64,000 bases of DNA. Source: Nematocida ausubeli (taxonomy: Eukaryota). A model generated the notes under the pieces. The model did not search any database, was not told where the DNA came from, and saw nothing but the letters and a program-made list of their open reading frames with translations. Shown here piece after piece: positions 43,089-45,146 of the stretch (within the stretch, counting starts at the first letter, position 1; every line of letters starts with the position of its first letter). The stretch is from NCBI RefSeq assembly GCF_000738915.1, contig NW_026515635.1:248001-312000 (forward strand), written 5' to 3'. The position numbers and the translations under genes were made by a program.

Positions 43089-43397
43089 TTATAGATTGGA
43101 CAAGACTTAATCCAGATTATTCTGAAATGGACAAGACTTTTTACTCAAAGTGCAGGACTTAATCCACTCTTGCAAGACTTAATCCACCTTTCCCAAAACT
43201 TGCAAGACTTAATCCACTTTGTCATAATTTATTCCACTCCACCCCAAGACTGACAAGACTTAATCCTTTTTTTATAAAACTGACAAGACTTAATCCACTT
43301 CCTCCCAAAATGACCAAGACTTTTTACACATAGTATATTAAGTCTTGCCATAAAATACGACTAATTACAACACAAATATGACCAAGACTTTTTACAC
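43089..43397 (+). repeat. Left inverted-repeat arm: CAAGACTTAATCC / CAAGACTTTTTAC motif array
   Basis: Motif starts at 43101, 43132, 43153, 43173, 43203, 43254, 43284, 43315 and 43383. Confidence 0.95.
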
Positions 43398-43451
43398 CCC
43401 TTAATAATCAGCCAATAATCGTATTTCTTCCACATATAATAATATTCCCGC

Positions 43452-44924
43452 ATGCCCCGTGGTATGCACCACATTAATACAGATATTTCCAACAGAAAGC
43501 ACATACAACACATACATAATCTATTACAAATAGTATATTTAGTACTAAATATACTGCATATACTGTATATATTCTTATACCCACCAGATATAAATAGACT
43601 AAGCGGCGCATTAATCCTTAATGTTCCTGTGGTATTTACACTAATTATTATATACGTTGTAATTAGTCATGTTAATAAAATAAGGATAAACCTTATTATA
43701 TACGTTGTAATTAGTCTTATAAGCATGTTAGTACTATTTACATACGGAATAGGCCATATTATAACGTATTTAGGCATATGCCTTAGTCTCATGGTGTGTC
43801 ATTACTTATTACGCAATGTGCCATATGTTCTGCTCAATTATATGACTAATTTATACAGGAATGCGGTCAGTACTTATTACACTGGATATAATAAGCTTTA
43901 TTCTTATTTTATTATTTTTGTGATATTTTATTATAACTTAGTGCATTTACAGTGTGGAATGAATATGTCCCAATTGGGATACATTATTTCCATGATACTT
44001 TTATTTTGGAACTTGAAAATACTAGTTATACTGTCCTTGTATTCGGGCTATATATCTAGTTTATATGGATTATCACATGGCACAAGAAATCCATACAATA
44101 CTCCCCCCTTAAAATATATTTTATACAAATTACCCAGTGTGTCAGTTATATTCGTGTGCAATATAATAAGGATTGCATGGGATCAGATTATACTGAGGTT
44201 TAATAAGGATATGACTAATTATAACGGGGATAATGAGGATATGACTAATTATAACGGGAATAATAACAGGACTAATTATAATAACGGAAATAATAACAGG
44301 ACTAATTACAATGAGAGTATACTTAGTCCTAATAATAACAGGGGTATACTTAGTCCTAATAATAACAGGAATATATTACAATATAACCCACGTTATACTA
44401 TATATAACCCAGATAACCCGGACATAACCCGTTATAATCCGATTAAACCTGTTATAACCAGGCCTACCACAATTAAACCTGATATAGCCCTAAGTAATTT
44501 GGACATATCCATAATAAGCTTATTATTATATGATATTCCTGTTGTAAATACGACTAACTATAACTCTTATTTTATTATTTCTAAGTGCATGGGATTTCGT
44601 GTTGTAATTGGTCTATATTTTTATTTTTTTGCTTTAAATATTTTTATAGTTACAAGGTTTATTGCATACCGTGAGATAAGTTATTTATACAGTTATGTTA
44701 TTTTAATTATTTTAATTAGTGTTAATTTTTATATGAATATGTCCATAAAGGGTAAATTACTGCATATGGAAATATTTAATGAATATAAAAATCATCACCT
44801 TTATGAGTTAATTAAGTTAAATTATAATATTTTATTGTCTGAAGATAACTTTGTTGTGGAGTATGCTAGGTTTGACAGTAGACTATGGGTTACATTAGAT
44901 GCATTAGGCACAAGCTATGAATAA
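43452..44924 (+). CDS. AT-rich multi-pass membrane protein with an Asn-rich repeat insert; possibly a very divergent choline-transporter-like (SLC44/Pns1) protein
   Basis: Uninterrupted 490 codons in DNA of roughly 22-25% GC (hand counts of two lines). About 8-10 hydrophobic segments. CCC motif just before the ATG. The family guess rests only on loose motif order (RNVPY, LLFW, SLLLYD). Confidence 0.7.
   Translation: MPRGMHHINTDISNRKHIQHIHNLLQIVYLVLNILHILYIFLYPPDINRLSGALILNVPVVFTLIIIYVVISHVNKIRINLIIYVVISLISMLVLFTYGIGHIITYLGICLSLMVCHYLLRNVPYVLLNYMTNLYRNAVSTYYTGYNKLYSYFIIFVIFYYNLVHLQCGMNMSQLGYIISMILLFWNLKILVILSLYSGYISSLYGLSHGTRNPYNTPPLKYILYKLPSVSVIFVCNIIRIAWDQIILRFNKDMTNYNGDNEDMTNYNGNNNRTNYNNGNNNRTNYNESILSPNNNRGILSPNNNRNILQYNPRYTIYNPDNPDITRYNPIKPVITRPTTIKPDIALSNLDISIISLLLYDIPVVNTTNYNSYFIISKCMGFRVVIGLYFYFFALNIFIVTRFIAYREISYLYSYVILIILISVNFYMNMSIKGKLLHMEIFNEYKNHHLYELIKLNYNILLSEDNFVVEYARFDSRLWVTLDALGTSYE
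44204..44369 (+). repeat. In-frame tandem repeats encoding DMTNYNG / NNNRTNYN / ILSPNNNR
   Basis: 30-bp period (ATGACTAATT at 44211/44241; TAATAACAGG at 44261/44291), then a 27-bp unit GTATACTTAGTCCTAATAATAACAGG at 44317/44344. Confidence 0.9.
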
Positions 44925-44932
44925 ATTATTAC

Positions 44933-45146
44933 AGTGTAAAAAGTCTTGGTCATTTTGGGAGAGAGTGGATTAAGTCTTGTCAGTTTTGAGATGGGGTGGA
45001 ATAAATTATGACAAAGTGGATTAAGTCATGCACTTCGAGTAATAAGTCTTGGTCATTTTGGGAGAGAGTGGACTAAGTCCTGCACTCCGTGTAAAAACTC
45101 TTATCCATTTCACAATAATCTGGATTAAGTCTTGTCCAATTTATAA
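44933..45146 (-). repeat. Right inverted-repeat arm: same motif array on the minus strand
   Basis: Minus-strand motif starts at 45134, 45103 (degenerate), 45082, 45051, 45030, 44979 and 44948. Confidence 0.95.

Follow-up and report, generated by a model that had tools for sequence, protein, structure and literature searches.

The DNA considered here is a 64,000-nucleotide stretch of Nematocida ausubeli, a microsporidian parasite of Caenorhabditis worms (assembly GCF_000738915.1, contig NW_026515635.1, positions 248,001 to 312,000; hereafter the window, numbered from its first letter). Between a gene for a DBP4/DDX10 helicase (41617..43005, plus strand) and a gene for tryptophanyl-tRNA synthetase (TrpRS; 45187..46305, minus strand), and including neither of them, lies an element in which two inverted arrays of a short motif enclose an AT-rich core. 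The left arm (43089..43329, plus strand) is 241 base pairs (bp) long and holds eight copies of the motif, and the right arm (44934..45146, minus strand) is 213 bp long and holds seven. The core (43330..44933, 1604 bp, GC content 28.7%) is present at single-copy depth and carries a 490-codon orphan open reading frame (ORF; 43452..44924, plus strand), an allele of NERG_00362. DBP4, TrpRS and two further window proteins belong to protein clusters in which the named members come from N. ausubeli. A preliminary description of the locus had reported imperfect inverted arms of ~240 and ~210 bp, each an array of one motif, around an intact 490-codon ORF with no transposase. That architecture is borne out: all alleles seen keep the ORF open, the sequence between the arms showed no transposase, and no Pfam family matches the ORF.

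The arms are 78% complementary over 223 columns (BLASTN, E 3e-46), with 90% complementarity in the outer 82 nucleotides (nt) and 96% in the inner 54 nt. The motif is about 15 bp long, reads CAAGACTT and then AATCCAC or TTTACAC, and points toward the core in all arm copies. In the left arm CAAGACTT starts at 43101, 43132, 43153, 43173, 43203, 43254, 43284 and 43315 on the plus strand; in the right arm the motif lies on the minus strand at 45134, 45103, 45082, 45051, 45030, 44979 and 44948; and a degenerate ninth copy lies outside the left arm at 43072. The spacings of the left arm (31, 21, 20, 30, 51, 30 and 31) fit a period of 10.16 bp and those of the right arm (31, 21, 31, 21, 51 and 31) a period of 10.33 bp, with residuals below 0.7 bp in either arm, and each of the 13 spacings deviates from the nearest multiple of 10.25 by no more than 0.75 bp. 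The left-arm phasing was reached by none of 20,000 random spacings; because the arm modules are related by duplication, however, we use a more cautious figure that counts only four independent spacings (0.18^4, about 0.001). Helical phase is preserved by the differences of 11, 9 and 30 bp between left and right modules. Such phasing would be expected if a sequence-specific protein recognized the motif from a single face of the helix, or, alternatively, if modules slipped in whole turns. No second copy of the arms occurs in the window, which holds a single array pair, and neither Rfam nor a motif-pair scan of viral contigs gave a match. The same scan of metagenome contigs gave one match, L001, that has no BLASTN similarity to the window and was taken as chance.

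The TATA at both outer ends to which the preliminary description drew attention (43090-93 and 45142-45) lies within the inverted repeat, so that the TA with which the element begins and ends (TA...TA) is ambiguous as a target site duplication (TSD). Perfect direct repeats of at least 7 bp were not found at the arm ends; the best direct pair, of 11 nt with one mismatch, sits 8 and 31 nt outside them, and the sole 6-nt match near both ends falls within the inverted repeat. A GG terminus of the Merlin type with an 8-9-bp TSD was looked for at the ends and not found.

These ends bear on the possibility that the locus is a Foldback-type relic, derived from a Mutator or Tc1/mariner transposon, in which the arms would be old modular terminal repeats and the motif a former binding site of the transposase; copies that flank a resident gene would have brought about its inversion as well as the local rearrangement, and these copies would by now be fixed. 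The arms of Drosophila FB elements have a 10/20/31-bp periodicity. Long modular terminal inverted repeats of the Foldback/Mutator kind are indeed present here, and in Tm1 of Meloidogyne (PMC3169594) and Tetris of Drosophila virilis (PMC4079207), as described in the available parts of those papers, the defining features are composite arms of a repeated ~14-bp motif, a number of units that varies between ends and copies, and a variable middle; at the N. ausubeli locus unit number likewise varies, between ends and strains. The TA...TA ends might suit the one Mariner/Tc1 family of Nematocida sp. 1, the only DNA family entered for Nematocida sp. in Table 1 of PMC4202319, which has no Mutator column, and the repeat content of N. 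sp1 is 2.1-fold that of N. parisii. Unlike this element, however, Tm1 and Tetris possess 8-10-bp TSDs and conserved terminal motifs, and for Tm1 empty sites and a transposase partner are known, none of which was found here. In addition, the phase of the motif survives indels, and fewer than ten reliable DNA-transposon candidates are given for Nematocida genomes in the accessible part of PMC5751038. On balance we consider a Foldback-type origin rather unlikely, and the distribution of the motif, the fixation of the locus and the gene order of sister species bear on it further.

Copy number and fixation were assessed from contigs of sequencing runs mapped to the window, for four of 24 listed runs (X1, X5, X8 and X10). 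Of these X1 alone, from which the window DNA may itself derive, was mapped at 80% likeness, a level at which more diverged copies would escape detection, and 87 further X1 pieces lie beyond the eight pieces considered per run, so that the number of contigs given below is a lower bound. Depth is 35 over most of the core and 34 in the flanks, as for a single copy; summed depth over the motif modules rises in X1 to 18.7x and 13.2x, and the outer 65-80 bp of both arms are at 1.0-1.1x at 80% likeness, which indicates that the arm termini are not common to other loci. An inner asymmetric segment (43313..43397, plus strand), which begins at the last left-arm motif and contains in order a forward motif, a reversed motif (~43340-43350), the word GACTAATTA and a relic forward motif at 43383, has a summed depth of 4.6x in X1; at this locus it occurs on the left side only, and another contig matches it over 85 nt with 14 differences. 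The excess depth of ~2,985 single-copy bases corresponds to ~13-27 further arms, or to 7-13 two-armed loci if all are paired, estimates that are rough because summed contig depth does not equal copy number. At least six further long contigs carry the motif: arm-like pieces occur, among the X1 contigs listed, on those of 1978, 2359, 5307, 5874, 26211 and 37590 nt, each at a single-copy depth of 31-35, as well as on one of 247 nt. An inward-pointing array opens the 1978-nt contig and closes the 2359-nt contig, an arrangement also seen in the element's own 1818-nt core contig. None of the 14 listed joints in the four runs goes from flank to flank past the element, as an empty site would, in contigs from which rare variants are dropped.

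Against a Foldback relic, then, the part of a terminal inverted repeat that is normally best conserved is here at single depth, the core is single-copy, no empty site appears in four runs, and at least two other contigs of ~2 kb look similarly bounded. A miniature inverted-repeat transposable element derived from Tc1/mariner is countered by the core, which at single-copy depth offers no internal sequence common to copies. Because it has no TSD, no common termini and no empty site, we have not placed the locus among Foldback or Mutator elements.

Among the 21 local minima of GC content in the window, the core ranks in the lowest two, and its observed/expected ratio for the TA dinucleotide is 1.31, against 0.86 window-wide. 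Two internal inverted repeats are present, at 43673-43715/43872-43914 (86%) and at 44321-44383/44524-44586 (75%). In a comparison of 12 genes the ORF, at 28.7% GC, has the highest AT content, two others being at 31-32% GC and its neighbours at 42.5% (DBP4) and 43.3%; the contrast in composition noted earlier is real but was overstated, at 22-25% for the ORF and ~50% for DBP4. All five window copies of GACTAATTA and two of four reverse copies lie between the arms, most of them within the ORF. This word resembles the arm motif and occurs on both strands in 43359-44308, mostly in coding sequence and loop repeats, as a DNA-level pattern laid over the reading frame. A perfect 24-bp palindrome lies in the ORF at 43532-43555.

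Judged from sequence, the ORF is probably a real, fast-evolving gene for a protein with 8-9 transmembrane (TM) segments. Hydropathy gives eight hydrophobic segments, and NERG_00362 is entered as a predicted 9-TM protein without a family in Supplementary Data 5 of PMC5423893. Origin as a chance frame is ruled out: in 1800 Markov simulations of the core sequence, 300 at each of orders 0-5, stop-free frames reached at most 146 codons as compared with 490. Other alleles encode 506 amino acids (aa; strain ERTm2) and 510 aa (NEAUS06_0600), and three more are fragments; all are 90-100% identical and have both ends in common, with in-frame length variation (490, 506 and 510 aa) in an Asn-rich loop of 27/30-nt repeats. 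The lack of stops among 45 distinct allele changes is alone not significant (P 0.16). Forty of 118 allele differences were listed, of which three non-coding ones were set aside; among the 37 classed, synonymous differences make up 19 of 19 in DBP4 and 7 of 18 in the ORF (Fisher p 4e-5). The ratio omega for the ORF is ~0.6, and falls to ~0.4 once the repeat loop is excluded; neither value departs significantly from neutral (p 0.06-0.2). Twelve of 18 indels were listed, and all 12 lie in the arms.

No homologue outside the species was detected in protein searches, which returned one match, the window's own protein, among 7534 candidates; two matches, both N. ausubeli fragments, among 1475; one N. 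ausubeli fragment among 1.84 billion; and again the own protein alone among 91. Atlas gave no usable match for the ORF, and an AlphaFold2 model built from six alleles was unusable (predicted local distance difference test score 32.5, predicted template modelling score 0.18). The window encodes another AT-rich membrane protein, of 293 aa (11054-11935, minus strand), to which the ORF shows no similarity (E 1.0). The exact sequence of that protein is absent from the protein collection, and an imperfect 89-bp palindrome (75%) lies at the start of its ORF (11928-12016).

The element is not an assembly artefact. Four X1 contigs tile it with no differences and bridge all four arm boundaries, with overlaps in the arms of only 25-28 nt; contigs of X8, X10 and X5 bridge the inner arm-core boundaries; and the core is covered in four of four runs (29-30 of 30 bins), with no single contig spanning the entire element. 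In ERTm2, NERG_00362 likewise lies between TrpRS and DBP4 in the orientation of the window, mid-scaffold at ~548 kb of a 964-kb record. The gaps beside the gene there are 668 and 364 bp as compared with 446 and 262 bp in the window, and are thus 222 and 102 bp longer, lengths that may include assembly gaps. Other assemblies place an N-terminal fragment of the gene on the 12,208-nt contig of DBP4, and both a C-terminal fragment and TrpRS on contigs of 40,679 nt.

In sister species, compared here through published tables (files 3, 5 and 6 of PMC5423893 and file 1 of PMC9762603), the gene order is different. The preliminary description had proposed that the DBP4-TrpRS interval of relatives be compared for an empty site. 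The two genes are not adjacent in N. parisii or N. ironsii, and a membrane-protein gene sits beside DBP4 in both. In N. ironsii this is NEIG_01849, a convergent gene for a 421-aa, 8-TM protein 71 bp past DBP4, and TrpRS lies on a different scaffold, beside small ORFs and a dynamin gene. In N. parisii 46.9 kb lie between DBP4 and TrpRS; NEPG_01016 and NEQG_00226 have the same topology as NEIG_01849, and NEPG_01016 is convergent with, and 1.55 kb from, a DBP4-like gene, which was identified as DBP4 by length and by its TAF9 neighbour. The proteins of N. ironsii and N. parisii have a first helix at 21-43, a variable loop of 97-113 aa and a tail of 60-63 aa, and NERG_00362 has a first helix at 21-43, a loop of 117 aa and a tail of 60 aa; protein searches with the ORF did not detect NEIG_01849, NEPG_01016 or NEQG_00226. 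From position and topology we infer that NEIG_01849 and NEPG_01016 are counterparts of NERG_00362. The gene is then probably resident and not cargo. If the orthology holds, an inversion has reversed it with respect to DBP4, and a rearrangement breakpoint coincides with each arm. Silent ORFs behind the N. parisii TrpRS gene were also considered as the same locus and rejected, NEPG_00985 and NEPG_00986 being NemLGF3 genes.

This comparison bears on two explanations based on mobility. The arms enclose a single gene of atypical composition that has no homologue outside the species, as would be expected of a Pack-type non-autonomous element that brought a captured membrane-protein gene to this site. 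The topologically matching 8-TM genes beside DBP4 in both sister species argue otherwise, as do the lack of a second core copy, of an empty site and of a TSD, and we regard such an origin as highly improbable. The earlier suggestion of a non-autonomous element mobilizing its cargo accordingly finds no support, in view also of the perfect repeats of 7 bp or more that are missing at the ends and of the termini not shared with other loci. For a Foldback relic the comparison has two sides: the arms lie at both inferred breakpoints of the inverted gene, but to enclose a resident gene in this way takes two insertions and the loss of both inner halves.

Rearrangement extends beyond the element. A pair of genes named by eye as cyclophilin-like and large CH-domain-like (59181-64000) lies to the right of the TrpRS-ING-Noc2-Spc97 block in the window, and the Pro_isomerase/CH pair of N. 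ironsii lies to its left, which points to a further rearrangement within ~15 kb of the element. The window also contains two large inverted paralogous genes (21373-24042 and 53637-56342) that are 77.6% identical over 2.1 kb; the second is a single 901-aa ORF, and the matching position in ERTm2 holds two NemLGF1 models, NERG_00353 and NERG_00354. At 46797-47696 is a 299-aa, Glu-rich ORF with a single TM segment and 9-nt and 24-nt tandem repeats, which is 301 aa long in other strains.

Recombination between the arms might also make the locus an active invertible cassette that serves phase variation of a surface protein. The gene is indeed reversed relative to DBP4 when compared with NEIG_01849 and NEPG_01016, and opposite-strand joints occur within the arms in X5, X8 and X10, one of them at about half depth in X5. 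The probable inversion between species aside, activity within N. ausubeli finds little room: window and ERTm2 agree in orientation, as do the fragment contigs of other assemblies and hence every N. ausubeli record that shows it, although contigs break inside the arms, so that a rare flip could be missed. The arms are, moreover, only 78% alike, Pfam found no recombinase family among eight proteins scanned, and the opposite-strand joints, which extend over just 31-57 nt on their short side, suggest and fit arms that are mosaics of left and right modules. There is, in our estimate, very little chance that the cassette is active.

It is also conceivable that the arrays bind protein for a purpose other than chromosome segregation, as a silencer or insulator pair, a nucleosome-positioning boundary or a replication origin at some ten loci, here bracketing a stage-specific membrane-protein gene. 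Helical phasing and low copy number would suit such arrays. So would expression at 10 h, when NERG_00362 is at 0/0 fragments per kilobase per million (FPKM) and its neighbours are on, TrpRS at 225/553 and DBP4 at 203/215 (supplementary file 1 of PMC9762603), and the conserved frame is what would be expected of a gene expressed at another stage. However, the right array starts 9 bp past the stop codon and mirrors the upstream array, an arrangement that is unusual for a promoter element, and the putative N. parisii counterpart, whose 3' side leaves no space for an arm, likewise shows little expression (0/17 FPKM). A non-centromeric role of this kind is, in our judgement, improbable.

The reading that fits best, although its probability stays somewhat below an even chance, is that the locus is one of a genome-wide family of phased arrays and works as a small inverted-repeat centromere. 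A centromere-like locus around a gene had been among the earlier suggestions, and it is the one that fares best, except in that the core is not free of ORFs. The resemblance to the motif-bearing inverted-repeat centromeres of yeasts lies in a common motif, locus-specific arm ends and a unique AT-rich core of ~2 kb, and further in fixation, in-phase turnover of the arms, position at breakpoints and a number of loci close to that of large scaffolds. As far as the accessible part of PMC3514677 shows, ~95% of N. parisii lies on 8-9 scaffolds and ERTm2 was plotted with 11 large ones, and the similarity of these numbers to the 7-13 loci estimated above is counted in favour of a centromere. In mechanistic terms, a sequence-specific protein would occupy the arms, in which modules would appear, disappear or pass from one arm to the other by whole helical turns; CENP-A nucleosomes would sit on the core; and the resident gene would have been enclosed and flipped in place, and would now be weakly transcribed and under relaxed constraint. 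A more specific form of the proposal, which we put forward as doubtful, is that N. ausubeli has compact sequence-defined centromeres at about ten loci, one per chromosome, with unique AT-rich cores of 1.6-2.2 kb between inward phased arrays, the core described here being an intact gene enclosed and flipped in place.

Several observations weigh against a centromere. The core holds a 490-codon ORF that is intact in three full-length and three partial alleles, all of its length changes are in-frame, and the allele differences suggest that the protein is probably still under selection. The silence of the gene comes from one shallow early time point at which many neighbours are also at 0 FPKM. The arms, at 0.2 kb, are ten times shorter than those of yeasts (a few kb, according to the available part of PMC12711049), and Foldback elements, too, are built of modular arms around a variable middle. 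Arrays in outward order elsewhere are seen at one joint (45004 to 43207). The 3' space of the counterpart gene is only 71 bp in N. ironsii and 155 bp in N. parisii, too little for an arm, and the arm architecture around the gene is therefore not conserved in sister species. Finally, a motif-free gap of 1.74 kb that is equally AT-rich lies only 2 kb from the element.

That gap (39440-41179) is gene-free, has a GC content of 28.3% and lacks the arm motif. It carries a direct repeat of ~150 bp (39502-39648 / 40558-40695, 70%), a 43-bp stretch of it matches 20946-20988 in inverted orientation, and the corresponding TAF9-CIAPIN1 interval of N. ironsii contains three NemLGF genes. The gap may be decayed gene-family sequence, or it may be an alternative centromere candidate.

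Among known centromeres, as they are described in the available parts of the papers cited, the closest comparison is with Candida tropicalis (PMC7292649), in which homogenized inverted repeats with a 12-bp motif surround a central core near synteny breakpoints, and the short motif is clustered in the arms, common to loci and symmetrically oriented. C. tropicalis and Barnettozyma discipulorum are both reported to combine a common motif with arms that differ from locus to locus and with unique cores (PMC7292649, PMC12711049). The arms of C. tropicalis, however, are kb-long and homogenized, its centromeric region is ORF-free, and CENP-A binding has been demonstrated, whereas N. ausubeli has 0.2-kb arms with locus-specific outer ends, a 490-codon ORF and helical phasing. 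Because its core is not ORF-free, we have not assigned the locus to the C. tropicalis type. Tandem copies of a short motif also occur in Wickerhamomyces anomalus (5-9 copies of a 21-mer) and B. discipulorum (an 8-mer in inverted repeats), and Komagataella phaffii has locus-specific inverted repeats without homogenization (PMC12711049). Unlike the N. ausubeli element, the centromeres of these three yeasts lie in large intergenic regions, have been mapped by Hi-C or chromatin immunoprecipitation, and use other motifs in an unrelated lineage (PMC12711049).

Within microsporidia, the loci proposed for Microsporidia sp. MB are regional, GC-rich and rich in retroelements and CpG (PMC13174016), in contrast to the short, AT-rich, motif-defined candidate described here. 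The telomere-to-telomere study of Encephalitozoon could not locate centromeres and gives no repeated candidate sequence in chromosome cores (PMC10158259), whereas N. ausubeli offers a motif candidate. A CENP-A-like histone is reported in both groups, with centromere position unproven in either (PMC13174016, PMC10158259), and by the account of the 2026 study further data are required before centromere position can be regarded as confirmed in any microsporidian (PMC13174016; all in the sections of these papers available). No published description of these arrays or of Nematocida centromeres was found in a literature that excluded most subscription papers, nor do the available portions of PMC10393165, 10.1101/2025.05.12.652816 and 10.64898/2026.09.17.752431 contain anything on Nematocida centromeres.

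If the locus is a centromere, it would be the first sequence-defined centromere in microsporidia, and its core would double as an intact gene, which is unusual in so small a centromere. Should it prove to be a relic of the Foldback type, it would represent an unrecorded repeat family linked to gene-order change in a transposon-poor genome. The centromere question becomes directly testable, given that the motif is 15 bp long, that the architecture is fixed and that C. elegans already serves as an infection model.

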